DNA from: Octopus sinensis
Lineage: Eukaryota
DNA length: 64,000 bases
Reading direction: 5' to 3'
NCBI RefSeq assembly: GCF_006345805.1
Contig: NC_043001.1
Location: 43,524,001-43,588,000 of the forward strand
Below the pieces are notes generated by a model. The model was not told the DNA's origin. It saw only the letters and a program-made list of their open reading frames with translations, and did not search any database. The position numbers and the translations under genes are program-made. This document shows, piece by piece, positions 1 through 62,379 of the stretch; position 1 is the stretch's first letter; every line of letters starts with the position of its first letter.

Positions 1-456
1 GCTCAGTTAAATATCTTGTGGTTCCAAATGATGTCATCTGTAGTGAAGCGTTGTATTATCTAATTTTGTTTTGGAAGTACTTGAAATCTTGGTCAGGTGA
101 TGACAACAGTTTCTTCAATGGTTCTGGAGGTTGGGGGATTGCAGGGAGTTTAACCTTTCCACCACTACAGCACAGTGCAGGTTTCTCTCCAGGCCACTTC
201 CTTGCCTTACAATGTATGCACTCAGTTGTCATTGCACCAATGGAAACTCTAGTATCATCTGCATAATGAATTGTTGGATCATAATTGAAAGCTGCTTCGT
301 AGAAGTTGCTTCTCTGAGCTGTTGCAACTGCTCTTCGTTCTACAGTGGAGATCCTATTCCTTGTCAGCCGTGCAAGTGTACAGTCTGTTCGTTTCTTCAT
401 ATGCTTCCCTTTTTACTAAGTCTCTCTAAAGGAGATTACGGCAGCGTTACTGGAAA
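1..456 (-). mobile_element. Helitron RepHel N-terminal fragment (pseudogene)
   Basis: ORF 56..400(-) contains CIHCKARKWPGEKPALCCSGGKVKLPAIPQPPEPLKKLL...FQNKIR, continuing past a stop as YNASLQMTSFG. This is the typical Helitron N-terminal CxxC...CC..GKV.LP...IR.YN..FQMTSFG region. Confidence 0.85.
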
Positions 457-819
457 TTAATAGTTATCGCCATACTAATATGAGAGACTTAGTAATTTTA
501 ATATTTCTATTATTGAAAACAAGTGGATGTATTCCACTGAAACTAGGTAAATAAAGCCTTCGAACTGGGACGATCAGTAGCGACACATGCAAGTCTGACT
601 ACGCTGCATTGATAAGGGGCAACAACCCTGAAACATGTCTGTAGCTGTCTGACTGGCAGGATCAAGCGGCTGACCTCCCTTGTTCGAAGGTGTTTGTAAT
701 GGACGCAGGTTCGTGTGTCAAATAGCTAGCTTGAGGCGGTGGCCTCTTGGAGCTAATCAGCGACAGCTTTAGTCTTATATTTATAAGACTGCCATCATTA
801 GTATGGCGATAACTATTAA
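457..819 (+). mobile_element. Fold-back non-coding element with central hammerhead motif (Penelope-pLTR/retrozyme-like)
   Basis: Perfect 23-bp terminal inverted repeat (457-479 ttaatagttatcgccatactaat / 797-819), nested inner pairings, hammerhead at 591-654, and a (TA)-rich right flank. Confidence 0.7.
591..654 (+). ncRNA. Type I hammerhead ribozyme motif, U3-A8 variant core
   Basis: gctgca-TTGATAA-gggg(caacaa)ccct-GAAA-catg-TC-tgtagc. Stem I extends through agtc.gac/gtc.gact. Confidence 0.7.
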
Positions 820-12142: not shown

Positions 12143-15081
12143 CATAGCTTCCCACAGTGGGCGATTTCAACTTACAAGTGGGCATGGGCGAATTTCTAAA
12201 AAATGGTGGGCGATTTGAGATTTTGGCGAGCAATATGAACATTTTGTGGGTGACAATGAACTTTTAGAAATTAAGTCTGCATTTACTGACATCTAGACAT
12301 GCCTAGAATAAGAATGCACTTTTATCGATTTGACTACTCGTTTTGTATTAAAAACGTGGACTTGTTTATCGATCGAATATTTTTGTCGCAATCATTGAGA
12401 TGGTTGTCATGCGTGCTAAAAATAGCAACCAAATAGGCCTAGGCCTTAAATCACATTCTACCACAAATGTTTTTTTTTTGGCATAATCGTATGAAGTCCC
12501 GCGTGTAGAATTCAAATTTGCAAAATTTCCTGAAAATCCGAAGAAAAAAGTTATGAGGGGTTATATATCGTGCGTAATTCTGTGGTTTCATATCAAAACA
12601 CAAGTGCTATTTTCAGGATATTGACAAAATGTGCAGTCACGCACAAAACGACGGCTTTGAAATCGTGTTTCTTGACTAGGCGAAAATGATCGAACTTTAA
12701 ACCTCTATAACTTTTTTAAAACATTTTTCTGGGAAAAGTTTAATAGCTCCAGCAATTTAGCTTGGAAAGGTACATTAATGTGCCAAATTTTAAAATTTTT
12801 GATAAACTTTAATTTTTGAAATGCTGGCAGACACACGAACTAGATCTGTATTTGCTCCAGTAAAGACGTATCATCTGACTCTGCTCTATTGACTTCTTCT
12901 CTTTGGGAATACCATACTATCTTTCTGACGCCATCTGTAGAAATTCGTTTTCACATTTTCACTTTGTGATTTTTTATCGTTTGGATTTATTCCCTCTCTT
13001 CAGAACTGTCAGTTATCAATGAGCCTTCTTTGCCATCAAACATTGACCAATGAAGCAATGAAACCTTCACGTTTGAAGTATCACTTTGATGCAAAGCATT
13101 CTGAGGACAAGCCGTTATCATACTTTTTGCAAATGAGCTGCTCTTTCAAAAAGCAAACACAAACATTCAACACGCTACTAGTAAACTGTAAACTGGAGAA
13201 TGATGGGTTGATCGTACAACATTATATTGCTTGTTGCTAAGTTTCACACATTTGTAGAACATTACTTCGCCCTGTTATCGAAGAGGTTTTGTCAACCGTT
13301 ATGCACGAAAAATCCGATAACATTATGAAGATCCCATTTAGTAATAACACAATTTTTCGAAGCATCGATAAAATGGCCAACGATGTCAAACGTCAGCTCA
13401 TTAATATTCTCCAGTGTTCTGAATTTTCTACCCAAGAAGATGAGTTAACTGTGGTGGACAATCAATGTTTGATGATGGTATATGTTCGGTATTTCAGCGA
13501 AGACCTTCAACCTTGTGAGGAAATGCTGTTCACAGAGAAATTGCCGTTTGATTCAAGAGGTGCAACTATTTTTCACACTCTCAAGTCTTTTCCTTTTTGA
13601 ACATAATATCACACTCAGTAATATTCTTGCATGTGCGTCTGGTGGAGCCCCTTCGATGATAGGAAGATACAGAGGTTTTTCATCTCTCCTAAAGCGTGAA
13701 ATTTCCCACCAGATACTAATTGTTCATTGCTTGGCACACCGGCAGCATTTAGTGGCAAAAGTATGAACGGTAGGTTGAATGATGCGCTACAGTTAGTTCT
13801 CAAGACTGTGAATAAATTGAAGTCCGGTCCCTTGTCTGATCGAATTTTCCGTCAACTCTGAGAAATGACGAGGACTATACTAAACTCTTATACCCTACCG
13901 AAGTGCGGTGGCTGTCAAAAGGAAACTGTGTTTTACGCTTTGTTGAACTGCTTCATATAATCATATCTTTCTTTGAAGTTACTCCACTATCCGCTTCATT
14001 GATGGCTAAGATATATTTTTTTTCTTTGTGTATATTCACAAAGTTAAATGATTTGAATAAGTCATTGCAAGAAAACAGAAAAACTCTCGTTGATTGTAAA
14101 TTATTTATCACTACCTTCATTTCGAAATTGGTATTGTATAAGACTAACATTTCAAAGTATCAGTTCCATCAATTTCCACAACTTGATTCTTAGAAAGATG
14201 GATTGGTTGATGAGGACTTAACTACATATTGCAACTATTTACAATCATTGCACGATGACATGGTGAAGCGATTTCAAGACGTTATTGTACTGAATATTCC
14301 AAATTGGTACAGCAATCCGTTTGAGGTCGATGCAATCGATTGCGAGGATGACGTTCAGGAGGAATTGATAGGATTACAAAATGACAATGACGCCACAATG
14401 CGATATCACCGTAATGGCAAAGAAGGTTTGTGGTACCATCAAAGTATATTGAATTCCTACCCCAGTCTGTGGAAACATCTGAAATTACTTTTGCTTGCCT
14501 TCCCTACCTCATACCTGGTTGAATCTGGTTTTAACCATGTTGGAACTTTACTTTCTCATCAAAGAATTGGACAGGATGTGACACAACAAGGAGACTTGCG
14601 GCTAAAGTTGGCAAGTTTGAAACAGAATGTATCTGCACTGGCTGCATTGCACCAGACACATAGTTCTCATTAAAAAGTTTTACTCTTTTCCTTTATAATA
14701 CAATCATTAATTATTTTTGCATCGGTAGTTCTGATCAATGGTTCATTTGGGGAAAGGAAAATCAGTGTAAAAGAAAGCGCAAGTTTCCAGAAGTTAATTT
14801 TTCTGAAAAAGATATAGTTAACGTTAGAATTTTATTGACATTAATGGAAAAAATAAACCCACTATAAGGGATTTGTAAACAACCGCATATTTAGTACAAA
14901 CAGCACTAAGCGGGAAACGAGTCTACGACATAGTGTGTCAAATGATACAGGGTGGGGTAGGAGATTTTGTGTTGGCGGGTGGTGGTGCCAGGGTCTTTTT
15001 TTTTACACAGGTAGGTGATGGAGCATTTTTTGGCCAATAGGTGGGTATTACAATTTGGCGCGAAAAGTTTGGGAAACACGG
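12143..15081 (+). mobile_element. hAT (Buster/Charlie group) DNA transposon, full-length but degenerate
   Basis: Degenerate TIRs catagcttcccaca / tttgggaaacacgg. 8-bp TSD gtgTAgat (12135-12142) / gtgTAggt (15082-15089) with the central TA typical of Buster elements. Confidence 0.85.
12960..14673 (+). pseudogene. hAT Buster/ZBED5-like transposase, frameshifted
   Basis: ORF pieces give CHQTLTNEAMKPSRLKYHF, FSTQEDELT, ACASGGAPSMIG, VHCLAHRQHL (CxxH), RWLSKG and FPTSYLVESGF (catalytic E region). Confidence 0.9.
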
Positions 15082-24629: not shown

Positions 24630-27152
24630 AGAGGTTTGCAGGTGCCACTATGAAAGGTTGCTCAATAAAGAGGATGAATGGGAGAAAGAAAGTCTGCCGA
24701 ATGTCGATCCAACAAAGGGACCTGCTATCTGAGTTGACAGTACCTTGGTAGATAAAGCAATTAAGGATATGAAGACAGGGAAAGCCCTGGGCTCATCAGG
24801 AGTCACTGCAGAGATGCTCAAAATATCTGGCGGTGTTGGCTATAGCTTAGTCACTCGTATAGTTAACCAGGTGATACATGAAAGGAGTCATACCCAATGA
24901 CTGGTGTAGCAGCACCATAACCAACTGCTACAAAGGTAAAGGTGACACTTTAGATACAAATAATTACAGAGGTATCAAGTTATTGGATCAGGTAATGAAG
25001 GTCACGGAGAGGGTCATAGCCCAACTAATTAAGGAGAGAGTCAGTCTAGATGAGATGCTGTTTGGGTTTGCGCCAGGGAAAAGCACCACTGATGCTATAT
25101 TTCTGGTAAGACAGCTGCAAGAGAAATACCTAGCCAAAGATAAACCTCTGTACCTGGCTTTCGTTGACATGGAGAAAGCCTTTGAGAGGGTCCCCCAGTC
25201 TCTTATCTCGTGGTCAATGAGGAAACTAAGGTTAGATGAATGGTTAGTGAGAGCTGTGCAAGCCATGTATAGGGATGCTGTCAGTAAGGTGAGAGTTGGC
25301 AATGAGTACAGTGAAGAATTCTGAGTAGGGGTAGGGGTCCACCAAGGATCAGTCCTCAGGCCCCTCTTATTCATCATATTCCTCCAGGTAATAACAGGGG
25401 AATTCAAGACAGGATGCCCCTGGGAACTTCTCTATGCTGATAACCTTGCTCTAATTGCTGAGTCACTATCAGAATTAGAGGAAAATTTTCAGGTGTGGAA
25501 GCAAGGATTAGAATCAAAAGGCCTTAGAGTCAACCTAGCAAAAGCCAAAGTCCTAATTAGTTGGAAGGAAGACAAACTACAAATCCCTTCAGGTTGATGG
25601 CTCTGCTCGATATGTAGAAAAGGCATAGCTAGAAACTCAATAAGATGTACCCAGTGTAAGCTATGGACACATAAGAGGTGCAGCAATATCAAAGGGAGGC
25701 TAACTGGGAAGATAGTTTTTGTATGTGGCAAATGCTTAGGTGCTATAAACACAGAAAATGTGCAGAGAACAACTTCTTCCACATTCCGGGGAGAAAAACT
25801 AGAAGTAGTTGATAGCTTCCGTTACCTAGGTGACCAAGTCAGTAGCAGGGTGGATGCTCTGAAAGTGTAGCTGCTAGAATAAGAATAGTCTGGGCAAAGT
25901 TCAGAGAGCTCCTACCTCTGCTGGTGACAAAGGGCCTCTCGCTCAGAATAAAAGGTAGACTGTATGACGCATGTGTGCGAACAGCCATGCTACATGGCAA
26001 TGAAACATGAGCCATAACTACTGAGGATATGCGTAAGCTCACAAGGAATAAAGCCAGTATGCTCCGCTGGATATGTAATGTCAGTATGCATGCACGACAG
26101 AGTGTAAGCGCCCTGAGGGAAAAGTTGGATTTAAGAAGCATCAGATGTGGTGTGCAAGAGAGATGACTGTGCTGGTATGGTCATGTGTTGTGAATGAATG
26201 AGGGCAGCTGTGTGAAAAAGTGTCACAACCTAGCAGTTGAGGGAACCTATGGAAGAGGTAGACCCAGGAAAACCTGGGATGAAGTGGTGAAGCATGATCT
26301 TCAAACATTGGGCCTTACCATGGCAATGACTGGTAACTGGGACCTTTGGAGATATGCTGTGCTTGAGAAGACCTGACAAGCCAAGTTAGACCATAGCCCA
26401 TGGCCTATGCCAGTGGGTGTAACCAACCCATTTATGAATACCCCTCATTCATTAGACAATAAACCTTGCTTGTGAAGACCTATTGAGGCAAGTGAAATCA
26501 AAATCAAAATCAAAGTTGCTGATGTGGCCGATGACAGAACTACCTGATTGGCACTCGTGTCAGTGGAACGTTAAAAGCACATCCAAATGTGGTGGTGTAA
26601 CCGGCCCATTTATGAGTACCCCTCATTCATTGGGCAATGCACTTTGCTTACGAAGACCTATTGAGGCAAGTGTAAACAAATCAAAATTGCTGATGTGGCC
26701 GATGACAGTACCGCCTGATTGGTACTTGTGCCAGTGGAACATTAAAAGCACATCTGAGCATGATCGTTGCCAGCGCCATGGATTCGCTCCCATACCGGTG
26801 ACATGTGAAAAGCACCATTCAAGCCTGATCGTTGCTAGCATTGCCTTACTGGCACATGTGCCAGAGGCATGTGAAAAACAACATTTGAGTGTGGTTGTTG
26901 CCAGTGTTACTGGACTGGCTCCCATGCAGGTAGCATGTAAATACACCTTTTGAGTGTGGTCATTGCCAGAACCGCCTGACTGGCCCTCATGCTGGTGGCA
27001 CATAAAAAGCACCCACTACACTCTCAGAATTTGCATCCAGCTGTAGAATTTTTGCCAAGTCAGATTGAGCCTGATGCAGCCTGTGGCTCACCAGTTCTCA
27101 GTCAAACTGTCCAACCCATACCAGCATGGAAAGCGGATGTTAAACGATGATG
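24630..27152 (+). mobile_element. RTE-clade LINE, 5'-truncated and degenerate, with repetitive 3' UTR and (GAT)n end
   Basis: NYRGIKLL, FGFAPGKSTTDAIF, AFVDMEKAF, GVHQGSVL, LLYADN, FRYLG, WYGHV and RGRPRKTW motifs. Stops include apparent CGA>TGA changes. The 3' end matches dispersed tail copies. Confidence 0.92.
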
Positions 27153-41449: not shown

Positions 41450-42135
41450 GACAGATTATATAAACAAAGACACTTACTTTTAGACCAATGTAAATATAAA
41501 TGCCCACATTGACAAGATCAGTAACCTCTCCTGGACTTGCAATAACTGCATCACTTCTCACCCAGGAGGCTATGCCTTTGCTGTTGAAGAACAGGAGATA
41601 GGCATGAAATACCTGATTAACAAAAGAAATAAGAATGCCTATAAACTTCCACTTTGTAATAAAATGTGTCAGTTGTGCCATAACAATGTGGAAGATATTA
41701 TGCATACCCTCAGTAGCTTCTCAAAAATATCTGCAAGATATTTCTGGCCCAAGAGACACGGCACTATTATTAAGATGGCATATAATGCTTTACACAAGAA
41801 GGATTATCCTGACTGTTATACCAAAGGTACACCAGAACCAGAAAGTACCCACAGCTTTAAAAATAATCTATTTAAAAATACTGGTGGAACCTTCTGATAA
41901 AACTGGTCTGTGTATGCACAACAAGCCAGACATAGTTGTTTGGGATGGTAAGCAAAATGTGTGTACCATTGCAGATTTGAATGGGGAAAACAAGAACGTG
42001 TATGGAAAACTAATGAAAAACTTATAACTCTTATATGCCGATTATAAATTTTTATTTGTTCCTATTCTCAAAAGTGCACTGGACTATGTAATAACAGATC
42101 TGCATAGAAACCTAGAAATGCTTGAGTTCTTCAAA
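41450..42135 (+). mobile_element. R4/Dong-like (RLE-type) non-LTR retrotransposon C-terminal relic
   Basis: EQEIGMKY..CQLCHNNVEDIMHTLSS..RH (zinc knuckle) and HNKPDIVVWD (RLE PD motif). Confidence 0.7.
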
Positions 42136-51204: not shown

Positions 51205-52491
51205 TTAGGTTGTCAAGAAAGTTCTTGCGGAATTTAAAATTTTGGTTTTAAATGATGTATTTCCAAATTAATTTTCATTAAATTACTTTGACTTTATATA
51301 TAATTTTAAAGCCTGTTCTTCGCTCTATCTAATCGTGTTACTTTTTTTCTTTTTGAATTATTAAGCCATTTTTTTCTGGAATGTTGAATACAACATGGAC
51401 AAAAAGCAAATTTGCACAATTTTCTTATTCCAGTTCAAGCTAGGCCGAAAAGCTGCTGAAACAGCTTGCAATATCAATGATGCATTTGGCTCAGGAACCA
51501 CTAATGAATGTACAGCACAATGGTGGTTCAAGAAATTTCGTAGCAGTGACAAGAGTCTTGAAGATGATAAGCGTAGTGGTCTGCCATAAGATGTTGACAA
51601 TGATCAACTAAGAGCCCTAGTGGAAGCCAATCCATGCACAACTGTTTGAGAGCTTGCTTCTGAATTAGACGTAACATATACAACAATTTTCAACCACTTG
51701 AAAGAGGTTGGAAAAATAAAAAATACTTGAGAAATGGGTGCTGCATGAATTGAATGACACCCCAAAAAAACATCATTTTGAAGTGTCATCTTCCCTTCTT
51801 TTACGCAACAAGAGTGACCCATTTCTTGACCAGATTGTGACTTGTGATGAAAAGTGGATTCTTTATGACAACTGGCAACACTCAGCTCAGTGGTTGGACG
51901 CCGACGAAGCTCCACGGCACTTCCCAAAGCCAAAATTGCACCAAAAGGAGGCCATGGTGACTGTTTGGTGGTCTGCGGCTGGTCTTATCCATCACAGCTT
52001 TTGGTTCCAGGTAAAACCATTACAGTGGAGAAGTACTGTCAGTAAATGGATGAAATGCATAAGAAACTCCAACAATAACAGCCAGCATTGGTCAATAGAA
52101 AAGGACCAATTCTTCTCCACAACAATGCTTGGCCGCACATCGCACAACTGACCCTGCAGAAGTTGAATGAATTGGGCTACGAAACTCTGCCTCATCTGCC
52201 ATACTCACCAGACTTCTCACCTACTGACTACCACTTTTTCAAGCATCTCGACAATTTTCTGCATGAGAAATGCTTCAAAAACCAAGACGATGCCAAACAC
52301 ACCTTCAACAACTTCATTGCCACCAGAACACAGGATTTTTATGCTACTGGCATGAATAAACTTGTTTCGCATTGGCAAAAGTGTGTTGATTCTGATGGTG
52401 TTTATTTCGATTAATAAAGTTTTGTTTGAGCTGAGATATGTGCATCTGAATTTAAAGGTTAAAAACTGCAAGAACTTTCTTGACAACCTAA
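51205..52491 (+). mobile_element. Full-length mariner, Hsmar1/cecropia-like, degenerate
   Basis: TIRs ttaggttgtcaagaaagttcttgc / gcaagaactttcttgacaacctaa, TA TSDs, 1287 bp. Transposase 51395-52414 has WVLHEL, TCDEKW, HNNAWPH and YSPDFSPTDY. Confidence 0.95.
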
Positions 52492-52493
52492 TA

Positions 52494-53900
52494 CTATACT
52501 GTTCAACAGTATAAACTTGTCTTTCCAGCTACCAAGCTGCACACCCACTAACTTGTTCTGATTTATCTTTGCTCCTGCTATTGGTTCATATACCTTTAGA
52601 ATTGAATTGATTACTTGCAATTCTATGGTGTCCACAACCATTATGGTGATGTCATCTGCATACACTGACACAGCTCTCCAGCATCCCAGAATGAAAGGGA
52701 TGCTCTTTAAGAGTTCTAGTTTCTGCAGCAATGGCTTGTGGGCTAGTGTGTATAGAAGAGATAAGAGAGAACAATCCTGATGGACTGAGTACATGATATA
52801 AAATGGTCCTGATAGGTGGTCATTCACTTGACCACTAAGTAAGTGCCATTGTGCCTTGCTGCAATCTAGCCTCTAGAAACAGGTATGAAACTGGTTTCTT
52901 TTCAGACTGCTACCAAGTAGCAATGGCCACCTACCCAAAAGCCTTTGCCTGATCCAAATTGATCAGGGCCCCATCACTGCCAGATTTATCATCTGTTCCC
53001 TCTGTGATGTGTCACATGAAATGAACGTTGTCATAGATGAGACTATTGGAGATGACAACCCAGCCTTTGTGTTTTGCACTGAAGAAATGGTTGAGGGACA
53101 TTCATACTACTATCACATTGGTCATGATGCCATTTCTAATTACTTCTCATTTAATAACTAGCTATCCTTCTGATCTACTTATGTCTTTCACTAGCTCTTT
53201 CCTAAATGCTATCAATTCAGATTTAATTGCCCTCTTCAGAGTATCATGCCTCCTATTGTTGGCTGTTGCCTCCATCAAATGCTAGTTGACTATCTCACTG
53301 ATCCAGTCTCTGTAGTCTTCATGCACTGCGAAAGATGCATCCAACTTCCAGTAGCCAGTTTCCTATTTATAAATCTTAAGTCAACATCACAAATTAGTGG
53401 TCTGTGGAGCCAGTTAGTTTAAATTGTGGGTACCTTATACTTTCACTATCAGCTAGCCTAATGAATATTTGAAGTATGATCTGAATAACCCACTGTGTTT
53501 GTTCCAAGTTCACATTGGCATATTCAGGAAATCCACCCATACCTCTCAGACTGTTGGAAATGTGTAAGCAGGTTTTAGAGGTTTCTGCTCCATCTTCTTC
53601 TTCTATGGTTTGCCTGATACAATTTCATTGTGCATCTAAAATACAATTCCAATACTGCACTCGTTAGAAAGAGCAGGATATTCCCAGGGAAATCTTTAGA
53701 TGTCCTACTCCAATGGGTGCATAGGTAGCTACTAGTGCTGAAGGCACTGCCTTTACTGTCATTTACATCCCATACCACTGACTTACCTCCTGAATCCAGA
53801 AAGATAGTCTCTACTTCTAAACCTAATTCTTTCTAGTAAAGTAGTGCCACTCCACAGTGTCATGTTTGAAATGTCTGACTACAGCAAAAGAAAAAAATTG
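52494..53900 (-). mobile_element. Tx1/L1-clade LINE ORF2 relic
   Basis: SVHQDCSLLSLLY..VSVYADDITIMV..GAKINQNK; ALINLDQAK; GYWKLDAS near 53350. Confidence 0.75.
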
Positions 53901-61110: not shown

Positions 61111-62379
61111 TCAGGTCATCCCATAAGTTCTGTCCGATTTTACCTTTTCTAAAATTGAATGAAATTTAACAGTATTTTAGAATGTCTAGTGGAATTAAAA
61201 ATTATTTTTATGCATTTGTATACATTTAAACTAATTAAATATTACTTTACAGAATAATAGAATTAAAATTTCTTTGATTAAAACCCTTTCTAACATGGAA
61301 GTATCCAAAGAGCATTTGAGGCACATAATGCTTTTATGAGTACAAAAAAGGAAACTCTGCAGCTGAAGTGACTCGAAACATACACTCAGTTTATGGGAAA
61401 GAATGCTTGAATGAAACAACTTGCGGAAGATGGTTTGCAAAATTCAGAAGTGAAGATTTCAGCCTTGAAGATGAAGATCAAACAGGACGTCCAGTTGATG
61501 ATAAGCTCCTTGAGGCATTACTTGAAGAAAATCCTGCATTATCAGTTGAAGGATTGGCAATAAAGCTTAGTTCAAACCATACAACTGTTCATTGTCATCT
61601 TCAACAACTTGGAATGATTCTTAAACTTGAAAAATGGGTGCTTCATGAATTGTCTGAAAGCAACCACAAATCCCGAGTTGACATCTGCTCTTCTTTTCAT
61701 TCTCGTGAATTCATTTCACCCTTTTTGGATGGACTTGTGACTGGTGACGAAAAATGGATGTTCTATCGAAATGTTAAACGTTGTAAACAGTGATTTGGTA
61801 AAAGGGAAAAAGCTCAACCACAACCGAGAAGGGAACTTATGGGGAAAAGGTTCTTTTCTCTATCTGGTGGGATTGCAAAGGAGTAATTAACTTTGAATTG
61901 CTACCACCTAATGCAACAATCAATGCTCAAGCAATTAGAGCATTTGAACCAAGCTTTGAAGAAAAAAAGACCCACTTTAGTGAATCGAAAAGGAGTGATG
62001 TTTCATCAGGACAATGCACGACCCCACACTGCAAAGAAGATCACAGAAGATCGAAGAGCTTGGTTGGGAAAAAATTCCTCATCCACCTTATTCTCCCGAC
62101 CTTGCTCCTTCAGACTACCATTTGTTTCATAGTTTACAGAATCATTTGGGTGACATTACTTTTGCAAGCCAGGAGGAGGTCGAAACTGACATTTCAGAGT
62201 TCTTTGCTTTGAAAGCAAAAGAGTTTTACATGGATGGGATTAAAAAGCTTGTAAATAGATGGAAGGAAGTCATAGATAATCAGGGAAAGTACATTGATGA
62301 TTAAATTTCAATTAAATATAACATTTGATCACTTGTTTTCTTTATGCAAAATTTGGACAGAACTTATGGGATGACCTGA
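61111..62379 (+). mobile_element. Full-length mariner (mellifera-like), degenerate
   Basis: TIRs tcaggtcatcccataagttctgtcc / ggacagaacttatgggatgacctga, TA TSDs. Transposase 61295-62304 has WVLHEL, TGDEKW, HQDNARPH and YSPDLAPSDY. Confidence 0.95.

Follow-up and report, generated by a model that had tools for sequence, protein, structure and literature searches.

What is the hammerhead-bearing element near the left end of the 64,000-nucleotide stretch of Octopus sinensis DNA analysed here (the window), and how did it come to lie there? A sequence-only reading had described a rod-like element of 363 nt at positions 457-819, closed by a perfect 23-bp terminal inverted repeat and capped by a hammerhead ribozyme with an exchanged core pair. 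Our analysis leads to a different outline: the locus is probably one insertion of a dispersed non-LTR retrozyme with a U3-A8 core, copied into a (TA)n microsatellite by the enzymes of a Penelope-like element (PLE). The repeat unit, its fold and covariation, the fixed 3′ ends, variable 5′ ends, inverted arms and microsatellite flanks can all be read from the sequence, and they are considered here in turn.

The ribozyme is a type I hammerhead on the plus strand (603-645). Stem I (603-608/640-645), which rests on sequence, folds and covariation, encloses the core at 609-615, where U3 is position 609 and A8 position 614. Stem II, defined by sequence and folds, occupies 616-619/626-629 and is followed by the GAA box (630-632; GAAA, 630-633), a helix III formed by a six-base palindrome (633-638), and the cut site C17 at 639, within the UH site 637-639. 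The core boxes, a Watson-Crick 3-8 pair, the GAAA and the UH cut site are therefore all present, and helix I is open. The extended stem I of the sequence-only reading is found again in both sequence and folds, with nested helices at 597-599/647-649, 592-595/651-654, 588-590/656-658 and out to 557-565/682-690; together they are predicted to prolong stem I into a rod of about 138 nt on the plus strand (555-692, z -5.15). A 3-nt bulge in stem I (600-602) is conserved in 33 of 38 copies, and the U646 facing it in 37 of the 38. This bulge is likely a loop I-II tertiary contact, and we take it to resemble the bulge of the Schistosoma hammerhead. Patterns of the U3-A8 type located the core on a single strand of the unit; other minus-strand ribozymes lie outside such patterns. 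The Rfam hammerhead models gave no match to the window element, and no hammerhead was among the 150 matches listed of 233, which were mostly microsatellite-like miRNA models. Rfam is uninformative here because a copy with the canonical C3-G8 core, from the sister family described below (L111), was likewise unmatched.

The element belongs to a non-coding repeat dispersed over the 2.7-Gb genome. Its unit measures 366 nt, as given by the distance between the cut sites of a natural tandem at locus L021, and is numbered from the first base after the cut site; the window's ORF list holds no ORF of at least 120 aa over it. From the 40 scored of 2,416 candidates we obtained 159 matches, many copies being 92-98% identical, and they stand singly, in partial tandems or paired head to head. 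The copy in the window is one of the solos. Its main arm (483-819, plus strand, 337 nt) runs from unit 209 to 366 and then from 1 to 178, crossing the cut site, and shares 92-98% identity with dozens of dispersed copies. A second arm of 70 nt, inverted and 5′-truncated, lies on the minus strand at 413-482 (unit 153 to 222) and is identical to the L021 tandem unit at 69 of 70 positions. The 23-bp inverted repeat (457-479/797-819) is indeed perfect, but it is not terminal to the element: it is a by-product of the overlap between the inverted arm, which reaches 413, and the main arm, and the same overlap gives a 14-bp repeat at 413-426/482-495. The 363-nt unit of the sequence-only reading is thus replaced by a 366-nt repeat and an arm that continues past 457; its suggestion of a retrozyme-like nature holds good.

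Does the UUGAUAA core reflect random decay of a canonical one? In a genome pattern search, exact core matches of the window's subfamily comprised 65 U3-A8 and 0 C3-G8 (control, 0), the reverse of what decay from canonical copies would give. A relaxed pattern produced 916 matches genome-wide against 1 in the control: 15 were C3-G8, 12 U3-G8 and 19 C3-A8, and 870 of the 916 were U3-A8, a number obtained by subtraction and with a few places counted twice. As judged from these copies, U3-A8 is fixed and is not decay. Seven C3-G8 loci make up a sister family that is homologous and likewise has inverted arms; the swap is therefore a true two-sided change between relatives, one that probably arose in one or a few events; the compensatory C3-G8 to U3-A8 exchange that had been proposed is upheld in this form. 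Covariation was scored on 38 of 46 copies (seven were dropped with the 5′ arm cut off and one as out of register), a set enriched for G8 copies and with stem II partly fixed by the search pattern. Stem I was paired in 89% of cells and the next helices in 89% and 84%, as compared with 13-54% in a slid control, and stems I and II both contained two-sided changes. Furthermore, inspection by eye of the first 100 rows of the relaxed search showed that 89 of 92 two-base loops of helix III complete a palindrome, and that all four possible palindromes are used (52, 29, 5 and 3 times). Two-sided changes, four alternative palindromes and a conserved bulge speak for selection acting on the fold of the ribozyme.

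The U3-A8 pair is a natural hammerhead variant for which activity in vitro is reported (PMC3088659, available sections), and about 1,300 such hammerheads are described for PLE-type repeats of Schistosoma mansoni (PMC4209133, available sections). The swap likely lets the repeat cut itself. By analogy, the U3-A8 ribozyme may be slow, because a study that scanned mutants of a type III hammerhead describes, in its available sections, rescue by the G3-C8 swap only (PMC9901934). Two consequences follow for practice: most hammerheads of the Octopus sinensis genome would escape descriptors that require a canonical core, and the U3-A8 and C3-G8 sister families, residing in one genome, offer a natural pair for measuring the effect of the swap. 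Other hammerheads were seen alongside. A loose core pattern matched 5,908 places, compared with 467 controls, in many families with U3-A8 and C3-G8 cores; these matches, some of which stand as head-to-head pairs, are a collection of retrozymes and PLE ends that has yet to be catalogued. At L098:5521, L055 and L058 there are additional families of hammerheads whose helix III palindromes are longer or whose flanks differ, and one of them has a C3-G8 core.

The region 457-819 is predicted to fold at -145.2 kcal/mol (z -9.9 against shuffles). If the inverted arm is left out (482-819), z becomes -5.95, and for a natural monomer, taken from cut to cut and folded in circular form, the prediction is z -7.97. 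The notion of the whole unit as a single long hairpin does not survive, since the rod spans only about 555-692 inside a multibranch fold of 457-819; nor does a viroid-like terminal hairpin, the length of the inverted arm differing at every locus. In the monomer, the predicted pairing probability of helix III is 0.0. The palindromic helix III, being self-complementary, points to cleavage as a dimer, and in a transcript of two units the rod is predicted to make two hammerheads face each other. For the two-unit RNA of L021, the double-hammerhead fold scores -190.5 kcal/mol against an MFE of -196.3 kcal/mol; it therefore lies 5.8 kcal/mol above the MFE and is not itself the MFE, although in the latter arms of different units are already paired with each other. 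The score for two monomers folded separately is -194.7. Dimer cleavage of hammerheads was reportedly the subject of Lunse in 2017, and 3-8 swaps are said to have been treated by Przybilski and Hammann in 2007. The palindromic helix III, like the PLE link developed below, is an addition to the sequence-only reading.

The boundaries of the copies were mapped at 27 loci, which together have 39 arms. Of 30 loci retrieved, L008, L012 and L017 were dropped as duplicates or overlaps, and small additional pieces at L004, L014 and L018 (three in all) were left out as well. The 3′ ends fall at two fixed sites 62 nt apart: 19 of the 39 arms stop at end A (unit 174-181), 17 at end B (unit 239-241) and three elsewhere. 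The 5′ ends are scattered over 33 distinct positions among the 39 arms, and 33 arms have a microsatellite-like 3′ flank, mostly (TA)n. Two opposite arms were present at 12 of the 27 loci, a share that is inflated because the first 30 loci were the best matches to a query containing the inverted arm. Ten of these 12 combine A with B, none A with A or B with B, and the remaining two, the window locus among them, have one end off. The other 15 loci are without an inverted arm; where it exists, its length ranges by locus from 34 to >500 nt. A further 21 loci were chosen by core pattern, of which 18 matched the unit; they contain six head-to-head pairs with both ends placed, all six A/B, and four with an unplaceable end. 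All 16 of 16 classifiable head-to-head loci are thus A/B. A simple fold-back origin of the inverted arm was considered and rejected: the window's short arm holds unit 179-208, which is absent from the long arm.

In the window, end A lies on the plus strand at 797-819, with a small hairpin predicted just before it in the circular fold. Positions 483-513, also on the plus strand, are the distal half of the 62-nt tail, 513 being end B; the inverted arm stops at unit 222 instead of B. A (TA)n-type microsatellite, the likely target, follows at 820-863, and the assembly gap behind it (864-963) means that no target duplication can be read. In contigs of three of four public runs, which carry four different organism labels, about 30 additional bases link position 819 back to 482, and in contigs of these runs the loose ends behind 513 are (TA)n. 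Elsewhere in the window, degenerate AACCCT-rich telomere-like repeats lie just past the gap (1242-1340), and a 23-bp inverted repeat of 96% identity with its halves 178 nt apart (2274-2296 and 2475-2497) is possibly a true MITE. By motif, the frames at 14194-14673, 24875-25324, 41484-42027, 51720-52151, 52459-52872 and 61329-62212 are presumably decayed transposase or LINE RT-like frames.

The arms also tell something of the template. Thirty of the 39 cross the cut site, 21 are longer than one unit, and none starts at the cut; for these reasons, the template was, on the sequence of the arms, either circular or a multimer left uncut. Tandems in which two hammerheads follow head to tail are rare (L021 and L050); the longest tandem has 2.2 units, and longer arrays were not seen among the loci inspected. 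The L021 units differ by 11 mismatches and 2 gap positions, which does not separate a circle from a multimer. At L050:1781-2633, a single arm contains, in tandem and at a distance of 361 nt, two hammerhead units of different families, an arrangement suggestive of template switching or inter-family recombination.

The available sections of PMC8557442 describe PLE insertions with 5′ truncation, partial tandems, an inverted 5′-truncated copy and a (TA)n bias, and with a tail of 30-40 bp that is often at one end only; they leave the origin of the inverted arms and one-sided tails unsettled. At the level of sequence, the footprint of the octopus family matches this described pattern. Potential partners are at hand in the genome. 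A GIY-YIG search by PF01541 gave 150 scored matches, and intact PLE ORFs of 775-883 aa were found that carry RVT_1 as well as GIY-YIG at the C-terminus, of Neptune/Nematis type. By a strict script, 5 of 30 GIY-YIG loci have a U3-A8 hammerhead 3′ of the ORF, and U3-A8 hammerheads also occur in both pLTRs (direct repeats) of L103 and in one further PLE family. The PLE hammerheads have the U3-A8 core and the same palindromes as the unit, some 70-80 nt before the 3′ end, and the PLEs also show two 3′ ends in (TA)n, about 30 nt apart. The unit and the sampled PLE pLTRs share core boxes and palindromes only, and blastn of the unit against PLE 3′ ends showed no likeness at 30 + 20 loci, retrozyme copies aside; because no sequence beyond the core is shared with the sampled 3′ ends, we infer the partner from footprint and co-occurrence.

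Several loci where PLEs and hammerheads meet deserve mention. L094, L095, L096, L103 and others represent a young Neptune/Nematis-type PLE family with many intact 781-aa frames, preceded at L095 and L096 by an overlapping frame of up to 479 aa; the family (L094-L096/L103) carries an AT-rich U3-A8 minimal hammerhead in its pLTR. At L101:4069-5294 (L078), a retrozyme copy lies head-on in the microsatellite directly behind a PLE 3′ end, and the two seem to have one (TA)n target in common. At L004:1226-1834 (= L119:935-2375), a PLE RT fragment and inverted PLE 3′-end pieces join the 5′ end of a copy, a junction that would reflect a chimera formed by template switching or else an insertion next to an older PLE; the PLE fragment is 88-91% like its best relatives and the retrozyme copy there 96% like its own. 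No PLE ORF lies between the same-strand hammerhead pairs found 1.7 and 4 kb apart, and the pair 3,955 nt apart encloses duplicated zinc-knuckle-like ORFs.

Such hammerheads in PLEs raise the question of whether the unit might itself be the pLTR or 3′ end of an unsampled autonomous PLE family, the copies being its 5′-truncated insertions. The insertion footprint is the same as that of PLEs, PLE pLTRs carry hammerheads, the available part of a preprint derives retrozymes from pLTRs (bioRxiv 10.64898/2026.07.22.740005), and at L004 a PLE RT fragment adjoins the 5′ end of a copy. Yet what lies upstream of the hammerhead is the same 366-nt unit again and no ORF, as the arms longer than one unit show (21/39); tblastn of five PLE proteins against L001-L061 and the window gave short fragments only (L004, L007/L008 and L048); no PLE ORF is present in either same-strand pair (spacing 1.7 and 4 kb); and the L004 fragment (88-91%) may predate the retrozyme copy (96%). 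We regard this origin as unlikely. It is also quite improbable that the repeat is a SINE-like parasite of PLEs moving as linear, uncut read-through RNA with a weak or dispensable hammerhead: the two-sided changes in stems I and II, the four palindromes and the conserved bulge argue for selection on the fold, and the crossing of the cut site by 30 of 39 arms, none of which starts there, would be produced by a ligated circle as well. The poor cleavage of PLE minimal hammerheads in vitro and the absence of U-A rescue in the available sections of one scan (PMC9901934) would fit such a parasite.

The original outline, a 363-nt element closed by a 23-bp TIR, taken as a hairpin RNA of viroid type or as a TTAA-ended MITE, draws on the perfect repeat, on TTAA at both ends and on the z of -9.9. 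It has very little left in its favour once the copies are compared, since the arm reaches 413, arm lengths run from 34 to >500 nt, 15 of 27 loci have no arm, the left boundaries are not common to the copies and the fold is branched. The MITE/piggyBac reading of the TTAA was rejected, the copies being without fixed terminal inverted repeats. Immediately to the left, window 1-412 (minus strand) is a degenerate N-terminal fragment of a Helitron Rep, so assigned because its relative L044 matches PF14214 (Helitron_like_N, E 2e-22); the window fragment itself gave no Pfam match. The element adjoins this fragment at 412/413, and might on that account be a part of the Helitron or carried by it. This is hardly credible: none of 14 other Helitron loci holds the unit, and most run on as Helitron past the point corresponding to window 412, where the inverted arm cuts off the unrelated fragment.

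The retrozyme insertion made by PLE enzymes thus remains our preferred explanation, and from the sequence features we infer its RNA-level steps (transcription, cleavage and circles) as follows. Tandem or partial-tandem copies would be transcribed, and the rod would form between a unit's 5′ arm and the 3′ arm of the unit that follows, so that the palindromes of adjacent units build a shared helix III. Both sites would then be cut after C17, releasing a 366-nt monomer. By analogy with the retrozymes of coral, mussel and axolotl, we lean slightly towards closure of the monomer into a circle by a host ligase; otherwise the template would be the uncut multimer. A Neptune/Nematis-type RT-endonuclease would nick (TA)n and prime at end A or B, the RT would copy across the joint and sometimes past one unit, and the other target end would prime at the other site, giving the inverted arm. 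A more speculative proposal, which we put forward tentatively, is that each insertion is primed twice, at the two fixed sites 62 nt apart, on a circle-forming retrozyme with hundreds of copies, and that this explains the tail and the inverted arm of PLEs; parasite and host element would have converged on U3-A8, perhaps as a slowed ribozyme that leaves an uncut or circular template. If this were true, the retrozyme copies would give a direct view of the way in which an RNA template is integrated by PLE enzymes. The origin of the PLE inverted arm and tail becomes testable with a template that is short, young and present in many copies and has two fixed ends.

The retrozyme class, the U3-A8 variant and the PLE footprint have each been published already, and the gain is incremental. 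The literature covered, which included main texts in part and few subscription papers, yielded no retrozyme described with a U3-A8 core or with the insertion footprint of PLEs; one octopus repeat paper, in its available sections, makes no mention of a ribozyme or hammerhead. As the mover of animal retrozymes, PLEs were called a 'strong candidate' in 2020 (PMC7229834, available sections), and mobilisation by PLEs was argued from phylogeny in 2026 (bioRxiv 10.64898/2026.07.22.740005, available part). A full PLE footprint with intact PLE ORFs alongside provides independent support for this mobilisation.

Metazoan non-LTR retrozymes are described as non-coding units of 170-400 nt, 350-390 bp in mussel, and share with the octopus unit one type I hammerhead per unit, a GC content below 50%, tandems, a stable predicted circle fold and PLEs as the proposed mobilising partner (Cervera and de la Pena 2020, PMC7229834, available sections). 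The octopus family differs from them in its U3-A8 core and in its mostly solo, partial-tandem and head-to-head copies instead of long arrays; moreover, circularisation by a host ligase was shown in coral, mussel and axolotl, whereas expression and circles of the octopus retrozyme are predicted. The co-occurrence with PLEs and the monomers, dimers and multimers reported in the available part of Li, Clavereau and Pollet (2026; bioRxiv 10.64898/2026.07.22.740005) are common to both studies; their evidence consists of distribution and pLTR phylogeny, mainly in vertebrates, and ours of an insertion footprint, with no pLTR homology found. According to the available sections of Craig et al. (2021, PMC8557442), the Neptune/Nematis EN+ PLEs share with the retrozyme the 5′ truncation, partial tandems, inverted copy, one-end tail, (TA)n bias and a hammerhead near the 3′ end. 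In contrast to them, the retrozyme has no ORF and a tail of 62 nt instead of 30-40 nt, and where their hammerhead is minimal it has a 6-bp stem I, a bulge and a long rod. Finally, the natural U3-A8 hammerheads described by Perreault et al. (2011, PMC3088659) and by Cervera and de la Pena (2014, PMC4209133), as far as the available sections of both extend, display the same 3-8 covariation; what distinguishes the octopus ribozyme from these is its setting in a retrozyme-type unit, a short stem II, a bulged stem I and a C3-G8 sister family.
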